Assembly: GCA_963981015.1 (NCBI GenBank) | Contig: CAXCCG010000002.1 | Span: 8,291 to 72,290, forward strand | DNA length: 64,000 bases | From: an uncultured Gammaproteobacteria bacterium | GTDB lineage: Bacteria > Pseudomonadota > Gammaproteobacteria > GCF-002020875 | Direction of reading: 5' to 3' | Shown here: in pieces, positions 25,560-64,000 of the stretch | Layout: each line of letters starts with the position of its first letter | Position numbering within the stretch: position 1 is the stretch's first letter | Notes under the pieces: generated by a model | What the model was told of the DNA's origin: nothing | Databases searched by the model: none | The model's input: the letters and a program-made list of their open reading frames with translations, nothing else | Position numbers and translations under genes: made by a program

Positions 25560-27269
25560 TCAGCTTTTTGGCAATTTATGTACAAACTGCTCAAACAGGT
25601 CTTGTAGTTTTTCGTATCTCCGGTCCTGATTCTCTGGAGGAATCCTGCTCAGACAATCATCAACCATGCCAATTCGTTCCTCTGTTACCCCCTGCTTCAC
25701 AATCAACCCCATAATCGCCTGTGCTGCATTGAGGTTGACCACACGATTCCCTGGCAAGCGATCTGCTGCCTTATAGAGAATTTCAACCGCCTCCCCTAAA
25801 TTTCCATTTTTGTAGTAACCGACCCCTTCGCTATTCAGTTTCAACACCTCTTTACGCGCAGAGTTGATCTCATCCCGCTCCTCTCCCTCGATTCCAATCT
25901 GTTCAGCCAGATCAAAAATCTCCTCATGCACTTGGGTGTCATCATGGTTGGTCTGGATCACTTGACTCAGGATCTCCTTGACCATATTTTTATTACTTTC
26001 ACGCCGTTTTTCACTCTTCTGCTTGGCCACCTTGGCGCTCAACCCCTCCAACCCTTCTGAGCGAAAATCCAACCCCTGGCTATTTTCAGTAATTTGAGTG
26101 GCTAACTTCAGTGCTGTTTGGGTATCAATGGAACCCGTTCGCTTTTTGAAACTTTCACTGGCCCGCTGCAATGACTTATCTGCCTCACGGGTATTTCCCA
26201 TATGACCATAGGTTTGATTCTCCTGCAATGCCGTCTCAATTTGAGCACCTGGGTCACCGGCAAAATTTTGTCGAGCTTTCCCCAGATTTTTCAGTGCCTT
26301 ATTGGGTTCACCACACTCCAACAATACCGCAGAATATCCAGTGTAGTCGGAGACTTCACGAAACAGTGAGTAGGTTCCCAGGCGCACCGTCTTCTCATAC
26401 GCACTGGTTGCCACCTCCAGATCGTTATTGGATTCCGCAACGGTTGCCAACAGTTTTTGTCTACGCAGCACTTTAGGGGACTGCCCGACCGCATCTTCAA
26501 GAATTTTCTGTGCCTGAGCCCCTTCACCCATCTTCACCAGTGCTTTGGCCATCCAGTCACGTGCCACATTGTAGGCATCATTCGCCTCCAGTACCTGCTT
26601 AAAATAACTCACCGACTCTTCATACTGCCCCTGTTGAAAGAGCACCCTCCCTCGCCCCAGCAAAGCCCAGAGCAGTTCACGATCCTTCAGGACATCATCA
26701 TAGATTCCTAGCGCATGGTCAAAGTTTCTGGTTTTTTCCAGAATTTCCGCCTTGATTCGCAGCAACTCCATGGGGGTTTCGGTACGTTTTGCAATTAATT
26801 GATTCAGGCAACTGAGTGCACGCTTGGTACTCTTCATCTCCAAAGCACGATCCACCTGAACCAGCCCCTCTTTCTCTGCCGCGAGGCGAAACAGTCGATC
26901 TGCCAAAACGGTACGGGAAAAAGGCTTGGTCAGATAATCATCCGGTCGATTCTCAACTACACTTAACACCATGGTACGTGCCGTTTCAGCGGTGATCATG
27001 ATAAAAATCGTGGAGTACCCCAGGATTTGTCGTGTACGACTCTCTTCCAGAACCTGCTGCCCATCTTTACCCTCTCCAAGATGAAAATCACAGAGCACCA
27101 CATCATAACGCTTACTTTCCAATAACGTTAGCGCATCTTTACCATTGGATGCGGTATCAATCTGATGACCGGGCACCCCCCCTTCGCTGATCATCGCAAC
27201 CAGAGAGGTGCGATAGTTACCAAAGTCGTCGACAACCAGAAAGTGAAAATCTTTTAGAGAATAGTCCAT
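25560..27269 (-). CDS. Response regulator with an N-terminal REC domain fused to a roughly 430-aa TPR-repeat region
   Basis: REC signature residues (VVDDF, phospho-acceptor D in VVLCDFHLGEG, T in MITAE, K in LTKPF). The remainder is helical repeats. There is a 2-bp gap to the kinase gene. Confidence 0.7.
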   Translation of the reverse strand: MDYSLKDFHFLVVDDFGNYRTSLVAMISEGGVPGHQIDTASNGKDALTLLESKRYDVVLCDFHLGEGKDGQQVLEESRTRQILGYSTIFIMITAETARTMVLSVVENRPDDYLTKPFSRTVLADRLFRLAAEKEGLVQVDRALEMKSTKRALSCLNQLIAKRTETPMELLRIKAEILEKTRNFDHALGIYDDVLKDRELLWALLGRGRVLFQQGQYEESVSYFKQVLEANDAYNVARDWMAKALVKMGEGAQAQKILEDAVGQSPKVLRRQKLLATVAESNNDLEVATSAYEKTVRLGTYSLFREVSDYTGYSAVLLECGEPNKALKNLGKARQNFAGDPGAQIETALQENQTYGHMGNTREADKSLQRASESFKKRTGSIDTQTALKLATQITENSQGLDFRSEGLEGLSAKVAKQKSEKRRESNKNMVKEILSQVIQTNHDDTQVHEEIFDLAEQIGIEGEERDEINSARKEVLKLNSEGVGYYKNGNLGEAVEILYKAADRLPGNRVVNLNAAQAIMGLIVKQGVTEERIGMVDDCLSRIPPENQDRRYEKLQDLFEQFVHKLPKS

Positions 27270-27380
27270 TTCATACCCGTTACTTATGATCCCATCTCTC
27301 TATATTATCCCCCGGAGCCACACCTTATGTTAATTTAGAGGCTTGTCTAAGGTACCCCTGAACAAGTCATCTACGATATC

Positions 27381-28607
27381 TTATAAATTTTTAACAAACC
27401 AGCGTTTCATTCGTTCCCAGATACCGATTGATCCTCCATCCAGTAAGCCGCCATATTGCTGCCTGTTCTTCGCTGCATGAATCAGCAGCCCGACACCGGT
27501 TGCATGAACTGGAGTACGTACAATATCAATCATCCCCTCAATATTCTGTGGTGCCCCGAGACGGACCGGCTTATGGAAAATCTCCTCTGCCAGCTCAACC
27601 GCACCCTCCATCTTCGAGCTGCCACCGGTCAATACAATACCTGCATTGATCATATCCTCAAAGCCACTTCGGCGCAGTTCAGCCTGCACCAGGGTAAACA
27701 GCTCTTCATAACGGGGACCAACCACTTCTGCCAGCCCTTGTCGTGCCAATCTGCGTTCAGGGCGGTCCCCAATACTGGGAACAGCAACTTCTTCATTCGG
27801 GTCAACCAGTTCAGAAATCGCACAGGCATACTTCACCTTGATCTGTTCCGCATGGTGTGTCGGTGTACGCAGAAAGACTGCGATATCATTGGTTACCTGA
27901 TCACCCGCTACCGGAATCACCGCGGTATGGCGAATAGAACCTTCGGTAAAGACTGCAATATCGGTAGTCCCACCACCAATATCAATCATACAGACCCCCA
28001 GCTCTTTCTCATCTTCGCTCAGCACTGCATAGCTTGAGGCGAGTTGCTCCAGTACAACATCTTCTGCCTCCAGACCGCAAAGACGGATACATTTGACAAT
28101 ATTTTGCGCTGCACTGATTGAACCTGTGACAATATGGACCTTGGCCTCCAGACGGACCCCGGACATCCCCATCGGCTCATGGATCCCCTCCTGGTTATCA
28201 ATAATAAACTCCTGGGGGAGAGAGTGGATGATCTTCTGGTCTGCCGGTATAGCAATTGCTTTTGCCGCATCAATCACTCGATCTACATCGATGGCGGTCA
28301 CTTCCCGGGTACGGATCGCAATGATGCCGTGTGAATTCATGCCATGAATATGGCTGCCAGCGATACCCGCAGAGACCGATCCGATCTCACACTCCGCCAT
28401 TATCTCAGCCTCTTCTACTGCACGCTGAATCGACTTTACTGTCGATTCAATATTGACCACAACCCCCTTCTTCAGCCCTTTTGAAGGATGTGTTCCAATA
28501 CCCAGTATTTCCAGCTCGCCAGAGGGCTGCATAGCCCCAACAATGGCTGCAATTTTCGTAGTCCCGATATCAAGACCAACAATCAATTCATGCTCTTTTT
28601 TTCGCAT
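27381..28607 (-). CDS. ftsA: Cell division protein FtsA
   Basis: 408 aa, collinear with E. coli FtsA (LVVGLDIGT.K.AA.VG, GVCMIDIGGGTTDIAV, GIVLTGG). Confidence 0.93.
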   Translation of the reverse strand: MRKKEHELIVGLDIGTTKIAAIVGAMQPSGELEILGIGTHPSKGLKKGVVVNIESTVKSIQRAVEEAEIMAECEIGSVSAGIAGSHIHGMNSHGIIAIRTREVTAIDVDRVIDAAKAIAIPADQKIIHSLPQEFIIDNQEGIHEPMGMSGVRLEAKVHIVTGSISAAQNIVKCIRLCGLEAEDVVLEQLASSYAVLSEDEKELGVCMIDIGGGTTDIAVFTEGSIRHTAVIPVAGDQVTNDIAVFLRTPTHHAEQIKVKYACAISELVDPNEEVAVPSIGDRPERRLARQGLAEVVGPRYEELFTLVQAELRRSGFEDMINAGIVLTGGSSKMEGAVELAEEIFHKPVRLGAPQNIEGMIDIVRTPVHATGVGLLIHAAKNRQQYGGLLDGGSIGIWERMKRWFVKNL

Positions 28608-43965: not shown

Positions 43966-45204
43966 TTAGTTAGCCTGACTTCGTAAAAAGGCGGGGATAT
44001 CGAGAAACTCCTCATCCAGCCCAGAGGCTGATGCACTGTTTACACCCGCCGCCCCATGCATTTGAGTCTCTTGTCTCTGAAAGGTAGGACGGTCCAGATC
44101 ACCACTCACTCTAGGTTGCTGAGGCATGTAGTCATCTGTACGTGGCATCTCCACTTCGACCAAAACAGGTTTTGGTCGTGGGTTTGCTTGCTCTGCAGCA
44201 ATGCTGTTCAACCCCGTTGCCACAACCGTAACACGGATCTCATCATTCATTGAAGCATCAAAACCTGCTCCAATCACAATGGTTGCGTCTTCAGAAGCGT
44301 ACTGACGTACCGCTGTTCCCACCTCATTAAACTGCCCCATGGTCAAGTCATAGCCGGAGGTGACATTGACCAGAATGCCGCGTGCACCGCGCAGGTCAAT
44401 ATCCTCCAGTAGCGGGCTGTGGAGCGCGATATCAGCAGCAATTGACGCACGATTCTCACCTGTGGCTGAGCCGGTACCCATCATTGCCATTCCCATCTCA
44501 GACATTACCGTTTTTACATCAGCAAAATCCACATTGATCATTCCCTCTCGGGTAATCAACTCAGCGATTCCCTGCACAGCACCTCGCAATACACCATCTG
44601 CCTCGCGGAACGCATCCATCACGGTCATGTCTGCACCAAAAACCGTCATTAATTTTTCATTTGGAATGGTAATAATAGAATCGACATGTTGACTCAACTC
44701 ATCAATTCCATCCAAAGCAACACTCATACGCTTTGGGCCTTCCATGGAAAATGGCTTGGTCACGACCGCTACTGTCAAGATCCCCATCTCTTTAGCAACT
44801 TCCGCAACGACCGGGGCCGCCCCGGTTCCTGTGCCACCACCCATTCCGGCTGTAATAAAGAGCATCTCTGTGCCTTCTATCGCCTCACGAATACGTTCCC
44901 GATCCTCTAGTGCAGAGTCTCGTCCAACGGTCGGCTTTGCACCGGCTCCACGACCACGTGTAGTCTGAACACCAATCTGTATTGCCGTGCTGGCAGAGGA
45001 TTTACCCAATGCCTGTGCATCGGTATTTGCACAGATGAAATCAACTCCCTCAATTTCAGAAGCAACCATATGTTCCAAGGCGTTACCACCTGCTCCCCCC
45101 ACTCCGATAACACGAATAATTGCGTTATCAGCATATGAATCGACTATTTCTTCAAACATATCTCTCCCTCGGCTTACTGGATTATTATAACCACTAGTCT
45201 CCAA
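43966..45204 (-). CDS. ftsZ: Cell division GTPase FtsZ, in a non-canonical position immediately upstream of mraZ
   Basis: 412 aa with GGGTGTG (GMGGGTGTGAAPVVAEVAKEMGILTVAVVTKPF), NTDAQAL and NVDFADV motifs, collinear with E. coli FtsZ. Its stop codon lies 21 nt upstream of the mraZ start. Confidence 0.96.
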   Translation of the reverse strand: METSGYNNPVSRGRDMFEEIVDSYADNAIIRVIGVGGAGGNALEHMVASEIEGVDFICANTDAQALGKSSASTAIQIGVQTTRGRGAGAKPTVGRDSALEDRERIREAIEGTEMLFITAGMGGGTGTGAAPVVAEVAKEMGILTVAVVTKPFSMEGPKRMSVALDGIDELSQHVDSIITIPNEKLMTVFGADMTVMDAFREADGVLRGAVQGIAELITREGMINVDFADVKTVMSEMGMAMMGTGSATGENRASIAADIALHSPLLEDIDLRGARGILVNVTSGYDLTMGQFNEVGTAVRQYASEDATIVIGAGFDASMNDEIRVTVVATGLNSIAAEQANPRPKPVLVEVEMPRTDDYMPQQPRVSGDLDRPTFQRQETQMHGAAGVNSASASGLDEEFLDIPAFLRSQAN

Positions 45205-51348: not shown

Positions 51349-52596
51349 TTAATGCTCTGGCAGACGCTCAGGGACCGGCTTGGTCTTGTCCATCTTCGAG
51401 TAGAAAGGCATCAACAGGAAGAAGGCAAAATAGATAACCGAGAAGATCCGTGCAAACATGGTAGCAACTGGTGTAGCCGGCTGTGTACCTAACCAGGAGA
51501 GCGCTACGAATGCGACCACAAAGATCGCCAGGGCCAACTTGGATATCATTCCCTTGTACTTGATTGACTTTACCGAACTCCGATCCAACCAAGGCAGGAT
51601 GAAAAGCATGATAATCGCACCAAACATTGCCACTACACCAAGGAACTTATCGGGGACGGCGCGCAAGATTGCGTAGAAGGCTGTAAAGTACCAGAGCGGA
51701 ACAATATGCTCGGGGGTCTTTAATGGGTCAGCAGGGACAAAGTTGTCCTTCTCCAGGAACCACCCCCCCATCTCCGGCACAAAGAACATCACTGCAGAGA
51801 AGATCATCAGGAAGACAATCACACCGACAATATCTTTCACAGAGTAGTAAGGGTGAAACGGAATACCATCCGCAGGGGCAGTCTCGCTCCAGCGATTTCC
51901 TTTCGGTCCCTCTTTAATCTCAATTCCTTCAGGGTTGTTAGAGCCAACTGCATGCAGTGCAACAATATGTAAGAAGACCAGCATCACCAGTACCAGGGGT
52001 ACCGCAATGACATGGAAGGCGAAGAAGCGGTTGAGAGTCGCATCCGCGATCACGAAGTCACCACGAATCCATAATGCAATCTCTTCACCTACGTAAGGTA
52101 CTGCACCAAACAGGGAGATAATAACCTGCGCACCCCAGTAGGACATCTGCCCCCATGGCAGCAGATAGCCCATAAAGGCTTCCGCCATCAGCGCTAGATA
52201 GAGCACCATACCAAATACCCAGATCAACTCACGCGGTTTACGGTAGGAGCCATACATCAGTCCACGGAACATGTGGAGATAGATCACCACAAAAAAGGCA
52301 GAGGCGCCGGTTGAATGCATATAGCGAATCAACCACCCCCACTCCACATCACGCATAATGTACTCTACCGAGGCAAAGGCGAGTTCTGCATCGGGCTTGT
52401 AGTTCATGGTGAGGAAAATTCCGGTCACAATCTGAATCACTAACACCAACATCGCCAGTGAGCCAAAGAAGTACCAGAAATTGAAGTTCTTCGGCGCGTA
52501 GTATTGCGCCAGATGCTCATTCCATACTTTTAGCAGTGGAAAGCGCTGGTCAAACCAGCCTACCACGCCTGTAGCTTCAGTCTCTCTCAGTCCCAT
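51349..52596 (-). CDS. petB: Cytochrome b of the bc1 complex
   Basis: 415 aa polytopic cytochrome b/b6. Confidence 0.93.
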   Translation of the reverse strand: MGLRETEATGVVGWFDQRFPLLKVWNEHLAQYYAPKNFNFWYFFGSLAMLVLVIQIVTGIFLTMNYKPDAELAFASVEYIMRDVEWGWLIRYMHSTGASAFFVVIYLHMFRGLMYGSYRKPRELIWVFGMVLYLALMAEAFMGYLLPWGQMSYWGAQVIISLFGAVPYVGEEIALWIRGDFVIADATLNRFFAFHVIAVPLVLVMLVFLHIVALHAVGSNNPEGIEIKEGPKGNRWSETAPADGIPFHPYYSVKDIVGVIVFLMIFSAVMFFVPEMGGWFLEKDNFVPADPLKTPEHIVPLWYFTAFYAILRAVPDKFLGVVAMFGAIIMLFILPWLDRSSVKSIKYKGMISKLALAIFVVAFVALSWLGTQPATPVATMFARIFSVIYFAFFLLMPFYSKMDKTKPVPERLPEH

Positions 52597-53189
52597 TATG
52601 CTGCTCCTTGATCGACGCCAATCAGGATACGGGTATCACTGACGTAGTTGTGTGGAGGAATGACCAGGTTGGTAGGTGCAGGTACACCTTGATAAACGCG
52701 ACCCGCCAAATCGAAGCGAGAGCCGTGACAGGGGCAGAAGAACCCCCCCTTCCAGTCGGGGCCGAGATCGGCAGGTGCCATCTCAGGACGGAATGTTGGA
52801 GAACAACCCAGGTGGGTACAGATCCCAACCGTTACCAGATACTCTGGCTTGATCGCACGTGCTGCATTCTGGCAGTACGCCGGCTGGTCCGACTCTGCGG
52901 AGGCTGGATCACTTAAGATACCGTCCAGTGCCTTCAGGTCATTCAGCGTCTCTTCAGTGCGGCGAACAATCCAGACTGGCTTGCCACGCCACTCCACCGT
53001 CAGCATCTGCCCCGGTTCCATCTTGCTGATATCGGCCTCAACAGGGGCGCCTGCAGCCTGTGCTCTTGCACTAGGACTCATAGACTTCACAAATGGTACC
53101 GCTACAAAAGCAGCACCTACTGCGCCCACTGCAGAGGTTGCTGCCGTCAAAAAACGACGCTTACCCAGATCTACAGTCTCTGTACTCAT
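52596..53189 (-). CDS. petA: Ubiquinol-cytochrome c reductase Rieske iron-sulfur subunit
   Basis: Tat motif KRRFLT, and Rieske boxes CTHLGC and CPCHGS. Start trimmed to MSTETVD. Confidence 0.9.
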   Translation of the reverse strand: MSTETVDLGKRRFLTAATSAVGAVGAAFVAVPFVKSMSPSARAQAAGAPVEADISKMEPGQMLTVEWRGKPVWIVRRTEETLNDLKALDGILSDPASAESDQPAYCQNAARAIKPEYLVTVGICTHLGCSPTFRPEMAPADLGPDWKGGFFCPCHGSRFDLAGRVYQGVPAPTNLVIPPHNYVSDTRILIGVDQGAA

Positions 53190-53333
53190 ACAGTCTCTCC
53201 AAAAATTGATGATGGACCCATTCAGCGTCCCCATTTAACCGCTAAACACATACACACCAAACCCAAAATTAGTGGCGGGAGATATTACCATAAACTGTTT
53301 GGGTGATTACACCCTTTTTAGGAGCGGGCTTAT

Positions 53334-55118
53334 TTAGCAACTACTCATATGACGCTGCAGCCAATATTCCGTAAGTGTCAACTGCCATAACTTGCTTCCC
53401 TGAATACGGGTAAAACTATTCTCAGCAGTTGGGTTGGCCAGCAATTTATCAATATAACTACGCTGATAAAGCCCCCGTTCACGACACGCCTGAGAACATA
53501 GAATATCTTGCATAAATTCCAGAAATTCACCACGTACATATTTAAGTGCAGGCATCGGAAAATACCCTTTGGGCCGATCAATCACCGAGTCAGGCAACAG
53601 TCCGCGAGAGATCAACTTGAGTGGCCCCTTCCCCTGATGTTTCAGTTTCAATGCCGGAGGAATCTGGGCCGCTAACTCCACCAGCTGGTGATCCAGGAAT
53701 GGTACCCTCGCCTCTAACCCCCAAGCCATGGTCATGTTATCAACCCGCTTGACCGGATCATCAACCACCAGTGTAGTGGTATCTGCCCGCAACACTTGGT
53801 CCAGATACTCATCTGCCCCAGCTCTCTCCAGCAACTCCTGCATCAGTACAGCAGTATGATCTTCACCCTGATATGGCTCTGCAAGCAGCTCCATCATCTC
53901 CGGGTGGTCTCGGTCAAAATAAAATTGACGAAAACGGTCCACCGGAGAACCTGTAGCACCCTCCATCAGCGGATACCAAAAGTAGCCTGCGAACACCTCA
54001 TCTGCACCCTGACCACTCAATACTACACTCACCTCTTGCGAAACCTGCTCCGCTAACAGATAGAAACCAATCGCATCCTGACCAAACATCGGCTCTGACA
54101 TCGCATCCACCGCCTCAGTCAATCTTGGCAATGCCTGATCATTTGGGATTATAATTTTCTGATGCCGGGTCTGGAATCGCTCCACAACCGCGTCAGAGTA
54201 CTCAAATTCACTTCCACGCTCCTCTGGCGAATCCTCAAAGCCAATCGAGAAGGTACGAATATCTCTGTGGCCCGCCTCAGCCAACATCCCCACCAACAGA
54301 CTGGAGTCGAGTCCACCCGAGAGCAAGACACCAACAGGCACATCGGAAGCGGCACGCCGCCGCTCAACCGCCTGCATCAGTGATTCACGAACCGCCTCAG
54401 CCCACTCCCATTCACTCTTTGCCTCTACAGGGCGCTGTGCTGTTAATGACCAATAACGATGCTGCTCTGTTAAGCCATCCGCATGGATGGTTTTCCAGTG
54501 GGCAGGCTCCATTTTATGAACTTCACGAAACAGTGTACGCGGTGCCGGTACCACAGCATGTAGAGAAAAATGGTGGTGCAGTGCCAGCGGATCAAATTGA
54601 GTATCCACTCCTCCCGCAGCCAGTAATGCAGGAAGCGTGGAGGCAAACAGGAGTCGTTTACCATCTTGAGTCCAGTAAAGTGGTTTGATACCCATCCGGT
54701 CACGCACCAGATGTAGCTGCTTAGCACGTTGGTCCCAAAGTGCAAAGGCAAACATTCCTGCAAAACGTTCTACACACGCCTGCCCCCAAGCATGAAAGGA
54801 TTTCAGGATAACTTCCGTATCACCCGTGGAGGTAAAGTGGTACCCAAGCCCTTTCAACTCCTCTCTGAGTTCACGAAAATTGTAGATCGTGCCATTAAAA
54901 ACGATAGTGAACGCCAGCTCAGAATCAACCATCGGTTGATGTCCTCGCTCTGAGAGGTCGAGGATTGAGAGGCGGCGATGCCCAAACTGTAACGGCCCCT
55001 GCTGCCACACCCCTTCATCATCGGGCCCTCTGGGTCGCAATGGCTGCAACATTTTCCGGATGGTCACCGAATCCGGTGCCATACCATCCAATCTTAATTC
55101 TCCACAAATTCCACACAT
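53334..55118 (-). CDS. Asparagine synthase (glutamine-hydrolysing) family amidotransferase, long form (about 595 aa)
   Basis: The N-terminal nucleophile requires Cys2, so the start was reset to MCGICGE. There is a Gn-AT-II domain plus an AsnB synthetase domain (SGGLDSS). Confidence 0.85.
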   Translation of the reverse strand: MCGICGELRLDGMAPDSVTIRKMLQPLRPRGPDDEGVWQQGPLQFGHRRLSILDLSERGHQPMVDSELAFTIVFNGTIYNFRELREELKGLGYHFTSTGDTEVILKSFHAWGQACVERFAGMFAFALWDQRAKQLHLVRDRMGIKPLYWTQDGKRLLFASTLPALLAAGGVDTQFDPLALHHHFSLHAVVPAPRTLFREVHKMEPAHWKTIHADGLTEQHRYWSLTAQRPVEAKSEWEWAEAVRESLMQAVERRRAASDVPVGVLLSGGLDSSLLVGMLAEAGHRDIRTFSIGFEDSPEERGSEFEYSDAVVERFQTRHQKIIIPNDQALPRLTEAVDAMSEPMFGQDAIGFYLLAEQVSQEVSVVLSGQGADEVFAGYFWYPLMEGATGSPVDRFRQFYFDRDHPEMMELLAEPYQGEDHTAVLMQELLERAGADEYLDQVLRADTTTLVVDDPVKRVDNMTMAWGLEARVPFLDHQLVELAAQIPPALKLKHQGKGPLKLISRGLLPDSVIDRPKGYFPMPALKYVRGEFLEFMQDILCSQACRERGLYQRSYIDKLLANPTAENSFTRIQGSKLWQLTLTEYWLQRHMSSC

Positions 55119-55144
55119 GCGATGAATTGACGGTAATCTGTGCG

Positions 55145-56035
55145 CTAGTACCGCACCAAACTCTCTACTTTGAGCCACTCATCGTAGATTTTTTTCAATC
55201 TGAGCGCCTCTTTCTTGTCGCTCGCACTGTAGTCACGGAGGAGATAGTAGGTCTTTGAACCCTGCTGAACCGTCACGATCTGAAGCTTGAAGCTGGACTC
55301 CCCTAAATCTTTAACGATAGCATCAGCTCTTTTTTTGTTGGTAAATGCACCTACCTGAACATGGTTGTGACCCAGCTTTGACTCTCTCTTTTTAGCAGCT
55401 ACCGGAGCAACCGGAGTGACCGCCTGTTTTTGAGGCTTCACATCGGCAACGGCTCTCTCTGTAATTTTAGCTACAGGCAACTCTGACTTAGAGATCGATT
55501 GTTCCATCAGAATCCGCTCTTTTTCTGACTCAACGGTTTCCATACTACCACTCACCTTCTCATCCACATGTACTGTTTCAACCATCTTCTGTTGAGGCGG
55601 TTCCGATTGTGGCACTACAGATTTTTCGGTCATGGATGCAACCGATGAACCCTGTTTAACGGACTCTATTGGCTCAACGGAATCAATCACACTCTCAACA
55701 GGGCTGGACTCCACAATCTCTTCCTGAGCAATCGTAACAGCCTCCTTTTTAAGGACAGCAACCTCATCGACCGGCTGACTCATACTCTCTGGATTCAGTT
55801 GCTTAGACTTCGCTTCACGCTGTTCACGTGTCTCCTGCAAAAGATTTTCAAGCTCTTGATACTCCTGGAGAAAAGGATCTAAGCCCTGCTCCTCGTTCTT
55901 TACTACAGAGTCCGCTGCGAGGGGATCCTTTAATGGATCTGGTCCAGAGACATCTTCAGAAAAATAGAGTGATCCACCGATAACAGCGGATAAGGCAACT
56001 GCAAAGGCAATAAACAGGGGGGCATGTTGTGTCAT
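55145..56035 (-). CDS. SPOR-domain (septal peptidoglycan-binding) bitopic protein
   Basis: 296 aa. N-terminal TM segment, an acidic/Pro-Glu-rich linker, and a C-terminal SPOR-like fold (HVQVGAFTNKKRADAIVKDL...YYLLRDYSASDKKEA). Confidence 0.75.
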   Translation of the reverse strand: MTQHAPLFIAFAVALSAVIGGSLYFSEDVSGPDPLKDPLAADSVVKNEEQGLDPFLQEYQELENLLQETREQREAKSKQLNPESMSQPVDEVAVLKKEAVTIAQEEIVESSPVESVIDSVEPIESVKQGSSVASMTEKSVVPQSEPPQQKMVETVHVDEKVSGSMETVESEKERILMEQSISKSELPVAKITERAVADVKPQKQAVTPVAPVAAKKRESKLGHNHVQVGAFTNKKRADAIVKDLGESSFKLQIVTVQQGSKTYYLLRDYSASDKKEALRLKKIYDEWLKVESLVRY

Positions 56036-56214
56036 AACGCTTGATTTCTATCCATGGTTACAAGTCATTAAGTATTATATAAAAGCACCTATAACGAATG
56101 CTTTGCTATCTGAACAACGCTGAGTCGCGCTAAGCAGAAAGGTCAGAGGCTGCTTTCTTCAACTTTCAAAGCGTATATACTACTGAACTCGAACCCGTTT
56201 GGTTACTAAAAAAT

Positions 56215-58302
56215 ATGTCTGATCCGCTTCTTCCTCCTCTTTTGCAGCTCTGCAAATTACACGGCTTCCCTCTAGCTGCGGAATCCTTGCTGGCAGGCAT
56301 TCCTCTGAAGCGTGGCTTACTGAATCCAGCACTGACCGTTCGAGCGCTACAGCGATCCGGTATCAACGGCAATATTGACAATCTTCCGCTAAAGAAGCTA
56401 TCAACCACACAGCTGCCGGCACTACTCTTTCTAAAGGAGAAGAAGGCTGTAGTGCTCAGCAAAATTGATGGAAAAACTGCCTATATCCTCGATAATGCGG
56501 GTCAAGAGGAGTCCATTGAACTCAAAAAACTCAAGCAACAGTACAATGGTCAAACACTGATCATTAATGGTGCACTGCCTCCAGCTGAAGGGGGGCAGGG
56601 AAAGCTCTGGTTCTGGAAAACCATCCTCAAGGGGTGGCCCATCTACAGCGAAAGTATATTTGCCTCTTTTATGGTCAATCTGTTTACCCTGGCCAGCCCT
56701 CTTTTCGTGATGAACGTCTATGACCGAGTGGTTCCCAACAATGCAATGGAGACCTTATGGGTGTTGGCAATTGGCGCGCTACTGGTTGCAGGATTTGATT
56801 TTCTGCTGCGTACGCTACGTGCCTACTTTATTGATGTGGCTGGAAAACGTGCTGATTTAGCTCTATCAGCCACCATCTTCGAACAACTCTTGGGTACCCG
56901 AATGGAGGCACGTGACCCGGCCTCCGGTGCCATCGCAAACCATATGCGTGAATTTGAGGGGCTTCGTGATTTCTTCACCTCTGCCTCACTCACAACTCTG
57001 ATTGACTTGCCATTTCTTGTCATCTTTCTTGCTGTCATCTGGATGATTGGCGGCCCCATTGTCTTTATTCCAATGACAGCCATTCCTATTGTGCTCATCT
57101 CTGCCCTGCTGCTGCAGATCCCGCTCCATCGCGCAGTGAGTGAAACCTTTAAAGAGGCTACACAAAAACACGCCATTCTGGTCGAGGCGATCTCTGCCGC
57201 CGAAACGATCAAAAGTGAAAATGCCGAGGGGGTCATGCAGCAGAAATGGGAAGGCTATGTCGAGAAGCTTGCCAAGTCGGGGATGAAAAGCAAGCTCTGG
57301 TCGACCCTAGCAATCAATCTGACAACCTTCACCCACCAAGCTGCAACCATCGCCATTGTGGTATTTGGTGTTCACCAGATTTCAGCAGGTGAGATGAGTA
57401 TTGGTGCCTTGATTGCCTGTACCATTCTCGCCGGTCGTGCACTGGCCCCTTTGGCAGGAATCGCCGCGCTACTGATTCGTTATCGACAATCCATGGTTGC
57501 TCTACGCGCACTTCATGGGGTAATGCAAAAACCGATCGAGCGCCCGGTCACGACCCATTTTCTACACCGTCCTCCACTACAAGGGGCTATCGAGCTACGG
57601 AAAGTCAGCTTTCAATATCCTAATCAGGAAGATCATGCTCTGCATGATCTCAATGCCACCATCCAACCGGGTGAACGGGTTGCCATTATTGGTCGTATTG
57701 GGTCGGGGAAAAGTACATTACAAAAATTGCTGCTCGGCCTCTACCAGCCACAGTCAGGCAGCCTGCTGATCGACCATACCCACTTAAATCAACTGGATCC
57801 TGCACAACTACGGCGCTCAATCGGTTATGTTTCACAAGAGATTGTCCTGTTCCGGGGCACACTTCGAGATAACATCAAACTTGGCAACCCACAGGCGAGT
57901 GATGAGGAGTTATTGGATGCCTCTCAACTGGCCGGTGTAGATACCTTTGTTCGGCAACACCCCAAAGGCTATGATCTGGAGGTTGGGGAACGGGGAGAGG
58001 GGCTCTCTGGCGGTCAACGGCAAGCGGTCGCGATGGCGCGTGCACTACTCCAAAAACCACCGATCATCCTGCTCGATGAACCCACCAGCTCGATGGATAA
58101 CAGTGCTGAACAGCAGTGGAAGGAGCGTTTCACCCCATTTCTGAAGGGGAGAACCCTGATATTGGTCACCCACCGCAGCTCTCTGCTCTCTCTGGCGGAC
58201 CGACTCATTATTCTGGATCAGGGTAAAATTGTCGGAGATGGCCCGAGAGACCGGGTTCTAGAGGCGTTAAACCAGGGTAAAGTCCTGCAAAACACAACAT
58301 AA
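56215..58302 (+). CDS. Type I secretion system permease/ATPase (ABC exporter with an N-terminal C39-like domain)
   Basis: 695 aa. A roughly 130-aa N-terminal C39-like domain, a 6-TM ABC transmembrane domain, and a C-terminal NBD (GRIGSGKST, LSGGQRQ, ILLDEPTS). Confidence 0.85.
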   Translation: MSDPLLPPLLQLCKLHGFPLAAESLLAGIPLKRGLLNPALTVRALQRSGINGNIDNLPLKKLSTTQLPALLFLKEKKAVVLSKIDGKTAYILDNAGQEESIELKKLKQQYNGQTLIINGALPPAEGGQGKLWFWKTILKGWPIYSESIFASFMVNLFTLASPLFVMNVYDRVVPNNAMETLWVLAIGALLVAGFDFLLRTLRAYFIDVAGKRADLALSATIFEQLLGTRMEARDPASGAIANHMREFEGLRDFFTSASLTTLIDLPFLVIFLAVIWMIGGPIVFIPMTAIPIVLISALLLQIPLHRAVSETFKEATQKHAILVEAISAAETIKSENAEGVMQQKWEGYVEKLAKSGMKSKLWSTLAINLTTFTHQAATIAIVVFGVHQISAGEMSIGALIACTILAGRALAPLAGIAALLIRYRQSMVALRALHGVMQKPIERPVTTHFLHRPPLQGAIELRKVSFQYPNQEDHALHDLNATIQPGERVAIIGRIGSGKSTLQKLLLGLYQPQSGSLLIDHTHLNQLDPAQLRRSIGYVSQEIVLFRGTLRDNIKLGNPQASDEELLDASQLAGVDTFVRQHPKGYDLEVGERGEGLSGGQRQAVAMARALLQKPPIILLDEPTSSMDNSAEQQWKERFTPFLKGRTLILVTHRSSLLSLADRLIILDQGKIVGDGPRDRVLEALNQGKVLQNTT

Positions 58303-58334
58303 TACTCAGCTAAACAACCCTCTTGAAACTGCCT

Positions 58335-60359
58335 CTAATTACTACGGATAATCCAGTTTCCCGTCTTACTGGAGTTGAGGTTCAGCTTATCCAGTTTGCG
58401 GTTAAAGCGCCTGAGCTGTTTTCCCAGCTCACCCTTTCTCTGACTTAACAGCTGACTCCGGTTCTTCAACTTCTGGTTATAACTGGAACCGTTATGGCTG
58501 GAGCGGTTCATTCTGCTCGCCAATAACAACCTGCGCTGCTCATGACGATTCAATTGCCCGCCACGCTCTTTCGGTTTCTGCCTTGGGGCCATCTGCGTAT
58601 TACCTTGTGACAATACCAGAGTAGGTTTAACCGGGGGCGGAGCGAGCATTGCCACTTCTGTCTGCACCACTCGACTGTCTACCACAACCGGTTTCCGGCC
58701 TCTTGCCTCATCCACTGCATTCAACACTACCCAGCCTGCATCTTTCATCTGGTCATAAGCCACATTCCAACTTGATGTTTTCTGAGTCATTGCCAAGTCT
58801 GGTGATGTAGTGGAAACTGAAGCCTCTGAGGCTGTAGCCACCGTCTCTGTCACCACAGTGCCGAACTCCGGTCCAGCCCCCCCACCATCAGTGACTATAG
58901 CGGTTTCAACAGAACTGCCGATCCCCATAATCGTGTCTGCAACCTTACCCGGTGCAGCCAGTACCCGGTCAATAAAGACCAGATCTCCAGCATCCTCTTC
59001 CGTCTCAAAACTATTCAGTATCTCTTCGGGAATATCCAAATAATTGAGCAGTACGCCAAGATGAGCAATCACCCGATAGACTCCAAGCCTTACACTGGTG
59101 TCATCTTGCAATACTGCCAACTTGGCCTGCAGTAGCGCATCATCTGCCGCCATAATCGTCATTACATCGGCTTCACCCAGCTTGAACTGCTCTTGAACCG
59201 ATTGTGCGTTTTCATGTGCGATTTGATACTGCTTTTTGCTCGTCATCAATAACTCTCGAGTAACTTCCAACCCATTCCAGTAGAGTTTTAACTGCTCTTC
59301 CATGCTGTGGCGTGCAATATTCAACTGCTCCTGACTATCAACCACGCTCTTCGCCATCTCTCTTCTGCGAGATTGATCTGCCCCCCCCCGAAACAGGTTA
59401 TATTTCATTTTCAGCAGAGCCGTATAATAGTCCTCTTGCCCCTCATTACCTCCATTATTGAGGTCACGCCCCCCTTTGAGTTCAAAATCAAGAGTTGGTA
59501 ACAAACCGGCACGGGTACCCTCAAAATCCGCCTTGATTGCATTCAGGTTCGCTCTCGCACTCTTCAAAATCGGATTATTTACCAATAACACTTCTATCGC
59601 TTGTGTATATTCAGCGGGCACCCCCCAGTCGGGGACGTCCATTGCCTTGTTCAATACTTCAGATGGCGCCAAGCCAACCACCTTGGTGTATCGTGCCAAC
59701 GCATCTCTATACTCACCTCTGGCAGAAATGAGTGCTGATTGTGCAGCCAGCAACGGAGTTTCTGCTGCAACCAGCTCTGATTTTCCAGCCCCCCCAGCCT
59801 CTACTTTCTCCTGAATCTGCATAAACAGCTTGTTATGCTGATTGACGTTCTCTACAGTCCATCGGATCACCCGTTGAAGGCGATAAATTTCATACCAGGA
59901 CTCAATCGTCTGCAATGCCACAGAGATGCGGATTTCATCCAGCTGAACGGTAGAAACCTCTAACATTTGGCCGCTACGATCTACCGCAGCTGCTGCCGCT
60001 CCTCCATCAAAAAGTGGCTGTGTTAAGGTGACTGTTGTACTTTTTTTCATCATCTTTGTAGAATCAGAGGTCGGTTTATCTCTGTATTCACGGCCTGAAT
60101 CCAGACTCACATCTAGCGTTGGAAGCCATCCTGCGACCGCTTGCCCCAGCTGTTCATCTGCAATACCCACACCATGGTAGGCTGACTTAATTTCCGGATT
60201 ATTTTGCAACGCCAAATGAATCGCTTGTGACAATGAGTGAGCATAGCTTGCCATCGGAGTTGAAAGTACCGCAACCAGAGCGGTCACTACAACCCTCTTT
60301 GCTACGTGCCGACGAGCACCTATTAATTTTACATTTCTATCATTCATCTTACTCACCAC
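58335..60359 (-). CDS. TolC-family outer-membrane efflux protein (T1SS OMF type) with a roughly 235-aa non-TolC C-terminal extension ending in a basic tail
   Basis: 674 aa. Signal peptide, a TolC-like two-repeat region to about residue 440, then a Thr/Ser/Val-rich segment and a Lys/Arg-rich C-terminus. Confidence 0.75.
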   Translation of the reverse strand: MVSKMNDRNVKLIGARRHVAKRVVVTALVAVLSTPMASYAHSLSQAIHLALQNNPEIKSAYHGVGIADEQLGQAVAGWLPTLDVSLDSGREYRDKPTSDSTKMMKKSTTVTLTQPLFDGGAAAAAVDRSGQMLEVSTVQLDEIRISVALQTIESWYEIYRLQRVIRWTVENVNQHNKLFMQIQEKVEAGGAGKSELVAAETPLLAAQSALISARGEYRDALARYTKVVGLAPSEVLNKAMDVPDWGVPAEYTQAIEVLLVNNPILKSARANLNAIKADFEGTRAGLLPTLDFELKGGRDLNNGGNEGQEDYYTALLKMKYNLFRGGADQSRRREMAKSVVDSQEQLNIARHSMEEQLKLYWNGLEVTRELLMTSKKQYQIAHENAQSVQEQFKLGEADVMTIMAADDALLQAKLAVLQDDTSVRLGVYRVIAHLGVLLNYLDIPEEILNSFETEEDAGDLVFIDRVLAAPGKVADTIMGIGSSVETAIVTDGGGAGPEFGTVVTETVATASEASVSTTSPDLAMTQKTSSWNVAYDQMKDAGWVVLNAVDEARGRKPVVVDSRVVQTEVAMLAPPPVKPTLVLSQGNTQMAPRQKPKERGGQLNRHEQRRLLLASRMNRSSHNGSSYNQKLKNRSQLLSQRKGELGKQLRRFNRKLDKLNLNSSKTGNWIIRSN

Positions 60360-60361
60360 CC

Positions 60362-60715
60362 TTAATTTGGTGAAATTACCGGTTTTCTGCGAAGAAAATA
60401 GTGCCCGTTACCATCTACACCAGATTCAGATTGATGTCTTTTTTTTGCCACAATCAATGCAGGTTTCACTATTTTTTTGGGACTCTTTTCCCCCTGCCTG
60501 CTTTTTTTATGAGCTGTGATGGGGTCACTATTGCGCCTGACCTTTCCCTCTAATAATTCACTGACCGGAATCTTTCGTGCAGGATAGGCTGCAGTAGAGT
60601 TTGATCGGGCCATCGATTGCTCCACAACACCTCTTGACTCTCTATTTTTCAACTCCTGCTCATCCAAACGAGAGTAGAGGTTCAGTGCAAAGCCCGCTAT
60701 TGATAACAGATCCAT
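60362..60715 (-). CDS. Hypothetical small basic protein
   Basis: 117 aa, no TM segment, Lys/Arg-rich. Translationally coupled position (2-bp gap) upstream of the TolC-like gene. Confidence 0.35.
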   Translation of the reverse strand: MDLLSIAGFALNLYSRLDEQELKNRESRGVVEQSMARSNSTAAYPARKIPVSELLEGKVRRNSDPITAHKKSRQGEKSPKKIVKPALIVAKKRHQSESGVDGNGHYFLRRKPVISPN

Positions 60716-60753
60716 ATCATCTCCCTATCGACTCATTATTCACTCAACCGAAG

Positions 60754-62002
60754 CTACCAACTGAGGCTCACACCACCGTTGACCAATGGCGTCCCTGCTG
60801 CACTATTCCAACTGGTTCCAAGACTGAACTGCGTAGTATCTGTCAAACTACCCTTCATCCCGACCGCCACACCTGTTTCTCCTTCATAGTAGCTAGTACC
60901 CATACCAATCGAAAAGTGACGATTCGGGGCTGGAGGTGGAAGTGCTGCCAATGCTGCCACTGAAGCAACCCCTCCATAGGCGATATCGAGCTGACTGCGG
61001 TTAACCCGCATCCATTGGATCTACACCATCTGCAACCCCCATTACACGGCTGGGAGCACCTGTTATAGGGTGGGCAAAACTGGCCCCCTTTTCGTCCAGA
61101 GTAATATAGGTACTGTTTACACCTCCAGAGAGTATTGTTTGATCATTTTGTACCACCAAGCCATGTGCAATACCGGTTGTTGGGTTATTAACTGTCAGAT
61201 TGATCGCCCCATTGGTTGCACCTGACAGGCTCAAGCCGTCAACAATTAACCCCCCTGTAATAGAAGTACCGGTACTATCGACCACCAGGGATTTCATACC
61301 ACTTTGGAGCGTAACTGCATTACCGTTGACTACAGTAGCTCCTGTGGTGTTCCCTACATTTACTGCACCCGTACCGGTACCTAAATTTGTTGTAGCGGCC
61401 GTAGTTGCATTGATGTTAGTTACCCCAATGATATTGGTTGTACTGCCGACATTATCATTACCAATATTGGTTGCCCTTGCCACACTATTATCAGTATTGA
61501 TATTGGTTGTGGTGCCTACAATATCGGTAGTCACACCTTGTACTAATGTATTGGTATCTCCAACAGTAATCTGACTGGTGCTACTGGTCACCAAACTAAT
61601 ATCTCCTGCAGTCACATTACCAATACTGACTGCTCCAGTGCCATTCACAAAATCGGTCACTGAATTGATTGAGGTCGCTCCATTCTGTCCCACTGAAAAA
61701 AGATTACTATTACTATTATTGTTGATCAAAAAGCTATCCGTTTTGGCTGTCATCGCTGTGGTATCCAGAATTACATTATTGGTACTCCTGGCCGCATCAT
61801 CTGCATAAAGACCCACTTCTGATCCACCACCTGTTCCAACATAGGTCGTCACCAAACCTGCACTTGAATCAGTCAGTGCCCAGCCACTGGCAATATTGTC
61901 ACCTTCTCCAACCAGTACCATAGGTGCTGCACTCAGCTGCATCGCAACCAGCATTCCGATCAGTACTATGTTTTTCTGCAGTGTCTCAATTTTCACGTTC
62001 AT
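60754..62002 (-). pseudogene. Trimeric autotransporter adhesin (YadA-like). A +1 frameshift separates the passenger (61001..62002) from the C-terminal beta-barrel anchor (60754..61011).
   Basis: The passenger has a signal peptide and Thr/Asn/Gly-rich head repeats, ending ...GVADGVDPMDAG*. The next frame encodes a YadA-anchor ending ...GVSLSW. Deleting one C from the CCC run at 61005-61007 restores a continuous ...DPMDAVNRSQL neck. Confidence 0.65.
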
Positions 62003-62034
62003 AATCCAAACCCCATAAAGGTGGCTATTGTTGA

Positions 62035-62760
62035 TTAACGACCACGAATACAACCGCCATTCTCAAAGCAGATCTGACTCCTCTGTTTCCTCTTTTTGAT
62101 CTGTTTTTTCTTGGCCTGCTGGATCTGGTTATCCACATTGACGCCTTGTCTTGCAAGCGCCCACTCCTGCGGGTTGTAGTTTCCAAAAATAGCTGTCGCA
62201 ATCTCTTTAGGAATATTGGTTTGTGCCGTAGAGACCACCATTCCGCTACCAATATCAATCATTCTCGCATTCACAATCACACCGCTTTGATGGTTGGTAT
62301 AGGTACCCGATAACACCAAATTAATATTGTGATGACTCCGCAACTCTTTCACTTCACGACTACGGATAAAATCTCCCAACTCACTGATCTGGATGGCAGG
62401 CATCGATTTAAAATCGGTTACCTTGAATCCCCGAATCTGCATTTCGTGAATCATGTTGTCCGCCAGCAACTCACCAAGCTTATTGGTATGTTTCAGGTTC
62501 TCCAAATTGACGAATGAGGTAATCGCAACCGGGTTGTTACTGACGTTATAGGTATCCCGGTTGAGGGATATTTGCTCTGCCAAATACTGTGTATATTCAT
62601 TAATCTGCCCCGGATTCACCTCAGGTTGCACGACCTGATATTTCAGGCTTTTCGACTGAAACATCGGTACACCGGATATACCACTACACCCCGTGAGCAG
62701 CACCGCCATCAGAGGCAACACTACGATATTCTGGATTCTCTTCTTCATTTTCTGATCCAC
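62035..62760 (-). CDS. Lipoprotein with a TolB-N/LpoB/CsgG-like C-terminal region (paralog 1)
   Basis: 241 aa. Lipobox LLTGC, paralogous to 62769..63437 (about 40% identity over about 110 aa), basic C-terminal tail. Confidence 0.5.
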   Translation of the reverse strand: MDQKMKKRIQNIVVLPLMAVLLTGCSGISGVPMFQSKSLKYQVVQPEVNPGQINEYTQYLAEQISLNRDTYNVSNNPVAITSFVNLENLKHTNKLGELLADNMIHEMQIRGFKVTDFKSMPAIQISELGDFIRSREVKELRSHHNINLVLSGTYTNHQSGVIVNARMIDIGSGMVVSTAQTNIPKEIATAIFGNYNPQEWALARQGVNVDNQIQQAKKKQIKKRKQRSQICFENGGCIRGR

Positions 62761-62768
62761 CTTTTCCT

Positions 62769-63437
62769 TTAACGTATCTTCATGACCCGTTGATCTGGCA
62801 TCGGCACATTGTGTCGAATCACCTTGACCACAGGCCGACTGATCTCCATATCTGACATCAGTCCAAAGTATTCATCGGTTGTAATAAAGGCCTGTGCAGT
62901 CGAGACCACAACGCTTGTCTCCCAATCCGTAAGACGCATGGTGATCGTCATACCATCACTATGTTCTGAGAGGGTTCCTGCCAACATGTAGGTAATATCA
63001 AAATCATTGCGCAATTCGGTGACATCATTACTGGTCACAAAGTCACCCTCATCCGTCACCTGCAACATCTTCATCAGATGGAAATCAATGGTGTCGTATC
63101 CACGTGTCTGTAATTCATGGACCAGGCCACTGCTCAATGAGCGCCCGATTCGGTTGGTCTCTTTAGGGTTATCGAGGTCAACGATAGAGGCTACCACCAC
63201 ACTATTACCATCCATTCTGAGTTTGTGGTGGTTATCCTTTAGCTGATTGGCCAAGCTATTGGTGATCTGTTTCATCCGCTTTGAATAGGCGGGCATCTCT
63301 GCCTCTGTGGTGATCGTATGCTGCGGTGACACCACATCTCCGTTAAACCCCAGGCTACTCCAGAATGTTGCCGCACTCACCTCAGTCACGAAACAGAGAC
63401 CTGCAATCAATACTGTTTTTAACTGTAAATTTTTCAT
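62769..63437 (-). CDS. Secreted (periplasmic) protein, paralog 2 of the same family
   Basis: 222 aa, cleavable signal peptide (VSA|AT), conserved VVVASIVDLDNP...MLAGTLSEHSDGMTITMRL block. Confidence 0.5.
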   Translation of the reverse strand: MKNLQLKTVLIAGLCFVTEVSAATFWSSLGFNGDVVSPQHTITTEAEMPAYSKRMKQITNSLANQLKDNHHKLRMDGNSVVVASIVDLDNPKETNRIGRSLSSGLVHELQTRGYDTIDFHLMKMLQVTDEGDFVTSNDVTELRNDFDITYMLAGTLSEHSDGMTITMRLTDWETSVVVSTAQAFITTDEYFGLMSDMEISRPVVKVIRHNVPMPDQRVMKIR

Positions 63438-63826
63438 TGTTGCCCCTTTACGACCTGCACACCTTCAACAGTTGGTTGTGATTTGCACTGACTTCCGACC
63501 CCTTCAGCACGTACAGAGACCGGATAGTCACCACAGCTACCTCCACTACACCCTGGTTGATACGGCATCTTCTTAATCTGCTTGATACATTCAGCGACCT
63601 CTAAATCCACATATTCAATCAAGGGTTCCGCCTGACACGTCGGGCAGTAGTAGTCACTACTCTGCATGGCACTCTGCCCTGCCCTATCCTGTGAATACGA
63701 TGCTGCTTGAAGCATAGGTAAGGTTCTACTTAACGAACCACAACCCGCACTGAGCAGTGCAATAAGCACTACGGAGATCGCTGTTTTTATACCTGTTCGC
63801 TTTTGACCGTCCATTCTCTTGACCAT
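63434..63826 (-). CDS. Cys-rich small lipoprotein
   Basis: 130 aa, lipobox LSAGC. There are 8 further Cys including CPTC, and CSGGSC. It overlaps the downstream gene by 4 bp (operon head). Confidence 0.45.
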   Translation of the reverse strand: MVKRMDGQKRTGIKTAISVVLIALLSAGCGSLSRTLPMLQAASYSQDRAGQSAMQSSDYYCPTCQAEPLIEYVDLEVAECIKQIKKMPYQPGCSGGSCGDYPVSVRAEGVGSQCKSQPTVEGVQVVKGQQ

Positions 63827-64000
63827 CTTTAGTTATTCCTGAGCGTCTGTTTTCTGACATTCTTATTCCACACAATTACTTAGCTACAATTATTGTGCCA
63901 ATAATAAATAAGATATTGTTTGTTATTAAATTTACAGGAATAGCGGTGTAAATTCACACCGCTTTAGCAGGAGACCGGTTACTCGGTGTAAGCCAGCATC

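Follow-up and report, generated by a model that had tools for sequence, protein, structure and literature searches.

At the high end of the 64,000-nucleotide stretch of contig CAXCCG010000002.1 analysed here (the window), which comes from an uncultured gammaproteobacterium, the minus-strand open reading frames (ORFs) between 58335 and 63826 form a tightly packed cluster. An earlier reading of the sequence letters by a model (the original prediction) had described this cluster as a surface operon of six genes spaced −4 to 38 bp apart, combining a trimeric autotransporter adhesin (TAA), two paralogous proteins of LpoB/CsgG-like fold, a Cys-rich lipoprotein, a small basic protein and a TolC-like channel, and all of these ORFs were found at the positions it gave. 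The intergenic gaps (−4, 8–20, 32, 38 and 2–14 nt) agree with one tightly packed operon, and no convincing internal terminator was detected within 58335–63826. While the six-gene layout is real, the TAA gene proved to be two ORFs split by a frameshift that had been overlooked, and the cluster comprises five intact genes and one disrupted gene.

In order of transcription the operon encodes a Cys-rich lipoprotein (CysLP), a secreted and a lipidated paralog, the TAA, a basic protein of 117 aa and a TolC-family protein; in today's annotation five of the six genes carry 'hypothetical' or merely generic labels, and a search of positions 52000–64000 matched no RNA family in Rfam. As described below, by their sequences both paralogs belong to the FlgO family, and we regard the locus as a variation on a known flagellar accessory module rather than as a new machine for secretion. 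Related loci in other assemblies are referred to by working labels (e.g., L050) where they must be told apart.

FlgO paralogs and the CysLP family

The kinship of the two paralogs was confirmed (31% identity; BLASTP E 7e-32), and Pfam searches placed both in FlgO (PF17680), with E-values of 1e-32 for paralog 2 (62769..63437, minus strand; 222 aa) and 1.1e-40 for paralog 1 (62035..62748, minus strand; 237 aa); NCBIfam gave no match for either. A phmmer search against V. cholerae FlgO from PDB 9YDS/9YFG, the in-situ V. cholerae motor in which these chains are named "FlgO domain-containing protein", scored 4.8e-28 for paralog 1 and 8e-21 for paralog 2, and by eye the alignment of paralog 1 with flagellar FlgO has ~45% identity. 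The paralogs are therefore not the uncharacterised family that had been supposed, since FlgO is the distal ring of the Vibrio flagellar H-ring. V. cholerae FlgO is an outer-membrane lipoprotein, anchored via its lipobox residue Cys16, and forms a C58 ring outside FlgP in the H-ring (PDB 9YDS/9YFG study). Paralog 1 has such a lipobox (LLTG↓CSG), whereas paralog 2 has a type-I signal peptide only, so that the proposed division into one lipid-anchored and one soluble protein was borne out. The ORF of paralog 1 spans 62035–62760 (241 aa), its likely start being the ATG at 62748 that gives the 237-aa product annotated in public assemblies; an exact-sequence lookup of the 241-aa ORF was without match because the real start is this internal ATG. 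Paralog 1 has a basic tail, and a C-terminal hairpin, CF.NG.C...R, that is conserved in the alignment of its homologues. The linkage to flgP and flgT that is typical of FlgO genes was absent among the scanned ORFs of the window and the next 10 kb upstream.

The LpoB/CsgG/TolB-N-like fold proposed for the paralogs was supported by an AlphaFold2 (AF2) model of paralog 1 (core pLDDT 75–90), the Foldseek neighbours of which included LpoB (2e-6), the PelC dodecamer (2e-5, ~20% identity), TolB-N, GNA1162, HpaA (6.5e-4), CsgG and FlgT. This likeness to PelC, LpoB and CsgG is structural only (Foldseek E-values of 2e-6 to 4e-3 at 10–22% identity), and membership of the paralogs in these sequence families was not found, with Pfam giving FlgO alone.

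The first gene of the operon (63434..63826, minus strand), which the paralog 2 gene overlaps by 4 nt, encodes CysLP, a predicted outer-membrane lipoprotein of 130 aa with the lipobox LLSAG↓C and seven Cys residues; neither of the operon's two lipoproteins (CysLP and paralog 1) has Asp at position +2. CysLP, the motif of which is C-x2-C ... EC.K.V..V.Y...C..C..(F/Y)PV(S/T)VR...C, matched nothing in Pfam or NCBIfam, and a profile of the Cys-rich domain recovered just 50 cluster representatives among 1.84 billion proteins, all of 56–130 aa and none named. The AF2 model of CysLP, based on 10 aligned sequences, had a mean pLDDT of 44.6 and could not be used. In 24 of the 31 species-level loci in which the upstream side is visible, the gene immediately before FlgO belongs to the CysLP family and, based on this gene order, we consider the CysLP family to be an unannotated, conserved partner of the FlgO gene.

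This partnership is far wider than the window's operon. A scan of species-representative genomes identified 36 loci, and none of the distant ones had a TAA or TolC homolog within 10 kb; of 31 other species-level loci, 24 had the CysLP and FlgO unit with neither a TAA nor a TolC gene inside a distance of 10 kb. Metagenome-assembled genomes (MAGs) of Piscirickettsiaceae have the order CysLP-FlgO-FlgO, and in Sulfurimonas and other Campylobacterales the order is CysLP-FlgO-CysLP'-Cys-rich protein-FlgO. In the Oceanospirillales Balneatrix and Pokkaliibacter flgT is divergent from CysLP-flgO-flgP, the neighbours being confirmed by Pfam matches to all three FlgT domains (FlgT_N/M/C) and to LPP20 (flgP). 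Moreover, 12 loci have the sigma-28 consensus TAAAGTTT-N11-GCCGATAA on the upstream side of the CysLP-FlgO unit at a distance of at most ~140 nt, against a background of just 39 sites in the 1.27 Mb-strand of DNA searched; in Oceanospirillales and Campylobacterota the unit is thereby assigned to the flagellar regulon.

Several variations on the unit were seen. A subgroup of small FlgO-partner proteins has lost nearly all Cys residues and retained the C-terminal FPVTVR motif (L033 3450-3716, L038 1811-2095, L044 9723-9998 and L046 3955-4206). In L033, L038 and L044 a conserved lipoprotein of 200–218 aa with no assigned family lies downstream of FlgO, and L038 and L044 have GGDEF-like genes as divergent neighbours. 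The Campylobacterales have an extra small secreted protein of 113–133 aa between the second CysLP and the second FlgO (L023 9578-9973, L024 9632-9973 and the equivalents in L025 and L026), with a Gly/Val-rich N-terminal half, the C-terminal pattern YYC.(G/Q)CPVC.(S/T)C and no Pfam match.

Putative promoter elements and flagellar neighbours

Three assemblies at least 99.96% identical to the window (L007, L049 and L064) extend past its upstream edge, and just beyond that edge they carry flgM (PF04316, E 4e-10; TIGR03824), the anti-sigma-28 gene, and a gene for a 510-aa flagellin (PF00669, PF00700). The 3' end of flgM lies within the window (63979..64000, minus strand) and is followed by a hairpin read from the sequence, AGCGGTGTGAATTTACACCGCT (63942..63963, minus strand), the probable flgM terminator. 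Flagellin and flgM genes are directly upstream of the operon in two lineages and fliS (PF02561) in a third, such that, of the four lineages in which the upstream side is visible, three have flagellar genes next to the operon.

Between flgM and CysLP there is a −24/−12 element, TGGCAC-N5-TTG(T) (63887..63900, minus strand), ~60 nt before the first start codon. Its form TGGCA(C/T)-N5-TTG is kept at this distance from the CysLP start in four diverged lineages (window, L002, L050 and L067) in which the surrounding intergenic DNA has otherwise diverged, and 41–43 nt after it all four have a 5'-UTR box, GTCA(G/A)(A/T)AAA(C/T)(A/G)GAC, which in the window is GTCAGAAAACAGACG (63844..63858, minus strand). 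We term the element sigma-54-like because the −12 C of the sigma-54 consensus is not conserved in it and because the motif is not unusual by number in the window (2 matches in 64 kb versus 1.7 expected). The flagellin gene has a canonical element, GGCA(T/C)-N5-TTGCAT, in both lineages where it adjoins the operon, and in V. cholerae the class III genes controlled by sigma-54 and FlrC include flaA, flgOP and flgT (PMC6504787). As a putative sigma-54-type promoter beside a sigma-54-dependent flagellin gene and flgM, the element suggests that the operon would be expressed with the flagellar 'ring' genes. A weak sigma-28 match in the window, TAAAGCGG-N11-ACCGCTAT, overlaps the flgM terminator hairpin and was not adopted.

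A second CysLP-FlgO-FlgO trio, without a TAA, is present in the same MAGs as the window's locus and adjoins, divergently, a gene for a LuxR/GerE-type response regulator (L004 8572-8823, L008 5097-5275 and the equivalent sites in L016 and L018). The intergenic DNA of this second trio holds a near-perfect sigma-54 element, TGGCAC-N5-TTGCT, directed at the regulator gene in four lineages. Further away, in the window itself, the ftsZ gene (Tubulin and FtsZ_C; 43966-45204, minus strand) lies upstream of the ftsI-mur-ftsW-ftsA cluster and not after ftsA, which is instead followed by a gene for a response-regulator-TPR protein (25560-27269; window region 25560-28607, minus strand).

The disrupted adhesin gene and the genes downstream

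The TAA gene begins with a 333-aa fragment holding the signal peptide and passenger (61001..62002, minus strand), which stops at a premature TAA codon, and ends with an 85-aa YadA-like β-barrel anchor of four strands (60754..61011, minus strand; PF03895, E 1.5e-9); signal peptide, passenger and anchor are therefore not joined in a single polypeptide. The break is a +1 frameshift due to one extra G in a GGG run at 61005..61007 (minus strand), as shown by comparison with three intact orthologs: the junction reads GAT GCG GGT TAA C in the window and GAT GCG GTG AAT, GCA GTA AAT or GCA GTC AAC in the orthologs, in all three of which it encodes a DAVN motif that is broken in the window. In silico removal of one G restores a TAA of 415 aa, for which there is no Pfam head or stalk match (a weak YadA_stalk match was seen in the L050 ortholog only), although the DAVNxxQL stalk-anchor junction is present. 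The passenger fragment is rich in Thr, Asn and Gly and 41% identical to an intact 428-aa ortholog; the anchor fragment lacks a signal peptide and shares 78% identity with the anchor of L013.

The same indel is present in at least six other assemblies, from NCBI (GCA_018691505.1 and GCA_018695175.1), ENA (ERZ4231634 and ERZ27237643) and JGI (3300028174 and 3300003582), all gapless and 99.96–99.99% identical to the window, which argues that the break is real and not an assembly error, and that it is fixed in an abundant population (the sequence of CysLP alone turns up in 356 indexed blocks of the collection). Every assembly of this population has the frameshifted TAA with the other five genes intact. 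Three ways around the break were considered and found wanting: programmed +1 frameshifting at GGT-TAA is unlikely, there being no slippery P-site codon and no upstream Shine-Dalgarno-like stimulator while the orthologs are unshifted; transcriptional slippage is unlikely on a run of 3 nt; and the 85-aa anchor, if translated by itself from an ATG at 61011, would be a barrel without a signal peptide.

In five related lineages the gene is unbroken as far as it can be seen. The order CysLP-FlgO2-FlgO1-TAA is kept in six lineages (window, L068, L001-3/L014, L013, L067 and L050), with the TAA starting 30–50 nt after the lipidated FlgO in all six and with FlgO1 identities of 64–78% across the close relatives that have the TAA. 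The TAA is intact wherever it is seen whole, i.e., in L001-3 (428 aa), L013 (475 aa) and L050 (350 aa); the L068 contig stops 420 aa into the TAA, already beyond the junction that is broken in the window, and the copy in L067 is visible in part, that contig stopping 160 aa into the gene. The passengers vary (proteins of 350–475 aa) while the anchors are conserved. The L013 sequence (JABIFG010000022.1) is a 2.4-kb contig with FlgO1-TAA-basic protein binned, probably wrongly, in a 'Candidatus Neomarinimicrobiota' MAG.

The link between the TAA and the lipidated paralog is thus not accidental, in agreement with the original prediction, and it raises the question of whether the trio of CysLP and two FlgO proteins serves the adhesin. 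In a refinement of the original prediction, the window's trio could have been repurposed as a dedicated scaffold for adhesin display, a PelC/CsgG-like lipoprotein ring beneath the outer membrane that would position or stabilise the TAA barrel and perhaps the tailed TolC, with the genome's second trio serving the flagellum. The constant position of the TAA behind the lipidated FlgO, the pairing of variable passengers with conserved anchors and the occurrence of a TAA-less second trio in the same MAGs all fit such a scaffold, as do the structural neighbours CsgG and PelC, the latter a 12-mer lipoprotein ring serving the PelB barrel; in addition, TAAs with co-transcribed periplasmic helpers are known, namely SadA with SadB and AtaA with TpgA (PMC8151025). 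However, the TAA is inactivated in a widespread population that keeps CysLP, both FlgO proteins, the basic protein and TolC intact, flagellar genes flank the operon, the similarity to flagellar FlgO (~45%, E 5e-28) is far above that to PelC (~20%, structure only), and we found neither homology to SadB or TpgA nor an OmpA-like domain. We consider this scaffold unlikely, and retain it because the linkage persists over six lineages and the genome has a second trio. As the TAA is broken with the other five genes intact, the trio cannot exist only for TAA display, and as the trio is also widespread without a TAA it is not simply a TAA secretion accessory. It is best seen as something other than a machine secreting the TAA, the basic protein or TolC. 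The CysLP-FlgO loci that lack TAA and TolC lie in flagellar contexts, and the interpretation given in the original prediction is supported in part. That prediction was to fail if the paralogs and the lipoprotein fell in well-characterised unrelated families with no conserved co-occurrence with TAA or TolC genes; half of this came about, in that the paralogs belong to a characterised family while co-occurrence with the TAA is confined to a narrow clade and with TolC to two lineages.

The gene after the TAA (60362..60715, minus strand) encodes a basic protein of 117 aa (pI 10.3) with no signal peptide, a conserved N-terminus, MD(L/F/I)LS(I/V)AGFALN, and a conserved C-terminus; it had no match in Pfam or NCBIfam and belongs to just three clusters among 5.8 billion proteins. 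It occurs in the window, L001 and L013 lineages. In L050 a strong terminator stands behind the TAA, and both the basic protein and TolC are missing there. The last ORF (58335-60359), with a likely start at 60347 giving 670 aa, comprises a TolC-family outer-membrane channel domain (59046..60347, minus strand; PF02321, E 4e-56) and a C-terminal extension of ~230 aa (58335..59045, minus strand) that is kept in the L002 ortholog, this tailed TolC being seen in two lineages. The channel narrowly passes the type I secretion system (T1SS) model TIGR01844 (228.6 bits versus a cut-off of 225.15). The extension consists of an acidic, Thr-rich linker, a conserved box, SWNVAYDQMKDAGWVVLNAVDE, and a very basic tail (pI 12), and has no Pfam match; in a metagenome scan with the TolC alignment the matches listed were TolCs of 21–26% identity, and the pattern NNPE[IV]KSA is common to TolCs.

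These modules are separable, the trio standing alone in most genomes, and one could read the operon as adjacency without shared function and without physical or mechanistic coupling. A compact genome would then have brought three independent units under a common promoter, namely the flagellar trio, an adhesin, and a TolC (housekeeping or T1SS) accompanied by its small partner. The terminator and missing genes of L050, the dispensability of the TAA in the window's population and the change of ATP-binding cassette (ABC) neighbour among sister lineages (see below) would agree with this. On the other hand, gene order, short gaps and the lack of internal terminators are kept across lineages with diverged intergenic DNA, and the 117-aa protein occurs in this context only, leading us to regard mere adjacency as improbable.

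Convergent with the operon is the gene for an LssB-type T1SS ABC exporter (56215..58302, plus strand; TIGR03375, 920 bits). The original prediction had rightly noted it, but it is specific to the window's lineage, the locus of a 76%-identity sister having in its place a convergent gene for a methyl-accepting chemotaxis protein (MCP). A repetitive secreted protein of ~1200 aa is encoded past the window's high end, upstream of flagellin (L063 4834-8402, with assembly gaps within), and lies 1.5 kb upstream of the operon in the window's lineage. It has tandem-95, Big_9 and cadherin-like repeats, a match of 22 bits to the LapA retention module that is below the cut-off of 50, and a C-terminus that by eye resembles a T1SS signal, with 0 NCBIfam matches. 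Could the tailed TolC and the convergent ABC exporter export this LapA/Bap-like adhesin, with the FlgO and CysLP proteins as periplasmic accessories? The T1SS type of the TolC and of the ABC exporter, together with the nearby repetitive protein, would allow it. Against this, the ORF scan of the window and of the adjoining 10 kb upstream revealed no gene for an HlyD-family membrane-fusion protein, the retention-module match falls short, and the ABC exporter and the adhesin are both absent from the 76%-identity sister locus, where the tailed TolC remains, such that an ABC gene conserved in linkage with this TolC was not found. We know of no T1SS role for FlgO proteins. This explanation is highly improbable in our view, and the ABC exporter is probably a neighbour that is not part of the operon's conserved function.

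Relation to known systems and significance

Based on the above we favour, with about an even chance of being right, a reading of the operon as a FlgO-type flagellar outer-membrane disk module that acquired co-transcribed surface genes. CysLP and the secreted and lipidated FlgO paralogs would form a ring or disk tethered under the outer membrane, akin to the distal H-ring of Vibrio polar flagella and to the disk, with FlgO as a component, that has been suggested for Arcobacter-type motors. The operon would be transcribed from the sigma-54-type promoter, and in a small clade of uncultured marine Gammaproteobacteria three envelope genes, those for the TAA, the 117-aa basic protein and the T1SS-type tailed TolC, would have been added to the transcript, their products being cargo of the surface or outer membrane that is expressed, and perhaps localised, together with the flagellar disk.

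Several points weigh against this reading. Besides flgP and flgT, other basal-body genes are also absent from the window and the 10 kb beyond, and that the organism has a flagellum we infer only from the flagellin, flgM, fliS and MCP genes. The promoter element departs from the sigma-54 consensus and is not unusual by number in the window, as described above, and sigma-54 drives many non-flagellar genes too. The second, TAA-less trio could be the flagellar copy, freeing the window's copy for another role, and the linkage to the TAA over six lineages suggests more than casual co-transcription.

The closest known system is the Vibrio H-ring of FlgT, FlgP and FlgO, with which the window shares clear FlgO homologs, one of them (paralog 1) a predicted outer-membrane lipoprotein like V. 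cholerae FlgO; control may be sigma-54-type, like that of flgOP and flaA. Unlike the Vibrio system, the window has no flgP or flgT nearby, its FlgO is duplicated into soluble and lipidated forms, an extra Cys-rich lipoprotein gene precedes FlgO, and the transcript is shared with the TAA, the small basic protein and the tailed TolC. In Arcobacter-type motors FlgO occurs in the absence of FlgP and FlgT, and FlgO is a suspected constituent of their outer-membrane-associated disk of concentric rings, the composition of which is not established (Chaban et al. 2018, PMC5758724). The lack of FlgP and FlgT is common to these motors and the window, and the CysLP-FlgO units of Campylobacterota stand behind sigma-28 promoters; in contrast, no TAA or TolC is linked there, and the window's organism is a gammaproteobacterium.

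A precedent for an autotransporter at the flagellum comes from H. pylori, the flagellar sheath of which is the location of both an autotransporter, FaaA, and a lipoprotein, HpaA (PMC7175336). FaaA is a type V autotransporter that affects flagellar stability, and HpaA is among the structural neighbours of paralog 1; co-expression or co-localisation of an adhesin with the outer-membrane structures of a motor is therefore plausible. FaaA differs in being a monomeric type Va protein and not trimeric, and in lying outside the flagellar regulon and ring-gene operons, and H. pylori has a flagellar sheath whereas none is known for the window's organism.

Other resemblances are more limited. PelC-PelB and CsgG, which have the α/β fold in common with paralog 1, are oligomeric rings held by lipid anchors at the inner face of the outer membrane, beside a barrel or forming one, while a ring in the window is predicted only; no pel or csg genes are near the operon, and the sequence family is FlgO. 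The helper operons sadBA of Salmonella and ataA-tpgA of Acinetobacter Tol5 resemble the locus in that periplasmic or lipoprotein genes share a transcript with a TAA, but none of the six window proteins has an OmpA-like peptidoglycan-binding domain or OmpA-family match such as TpgA would predict, paralog 1 has an LpoB/PelC-like fold that differs from that of SadB (a trimeric inner-membrane lipoprotein), with no homology between the two, and the window's partner genes are widespread without any TAA. With the LapA/LapB/LapC/LapE T1SS the locus has in common a T1SS-type TolC, an LssB/LapB-like ABC exporter and a large repetitive adhesin within ~14 kb; it differs in having no membrane-fusion protein, LapG or LapD, in having components that are scattered and not kept together in the sister lineage, and in the unusual ~230-aa tail of its TolC.

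FlgO was already known as a family, so that the finding does not constitute a new category. What is new is the duplicated pair of soluble and lipidated FlgO proteins, the conserved and unannotated Cys-rich lipoprotein partner of FlgO and, in an abundant uncultured marine gammaproteobacterium, the joining of a FlgO module to genes for a TAA and a tailed TolC. Flagellar motors diversify through accessory rings, the composition of which is incompletely known. In the in-situ motor structures of Vibrio, for instance, peripheral H-ring densities are without assignment (PDB 9YDS/9YFG study). CysLP, which travels with FlgO across two phyla under flagellar promoters, is a concrete candidate for a flagellar-disk component and could be tested in the cultivable Sulfurimonas, Arcobacter, Balneatrix and Pokkaliibacter. 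The joining of the FlgO module with a TAA and with a TolC of unprecedented tail suggests that surface adhesins and channels can be coupled to the expression of flagellar genes and possibly to flagellar location. In a bolder form, to which we give a low probability, the products of all six genes would make up one assembly, in which a disk of FlgO and CysLP, at the flagellar or sheath base, arranges the TAA and TolC barrels around the motor, with the long basic tail of TolC reaching into the disk; independently of this, CysLP would be a widely conserved FlgO partner in flagellar outer-membrane disks of Gammaproteobacteria and Campylobacterota; if true, this single six-gene assembly would be a new type of flagellar outer-membrane complex.

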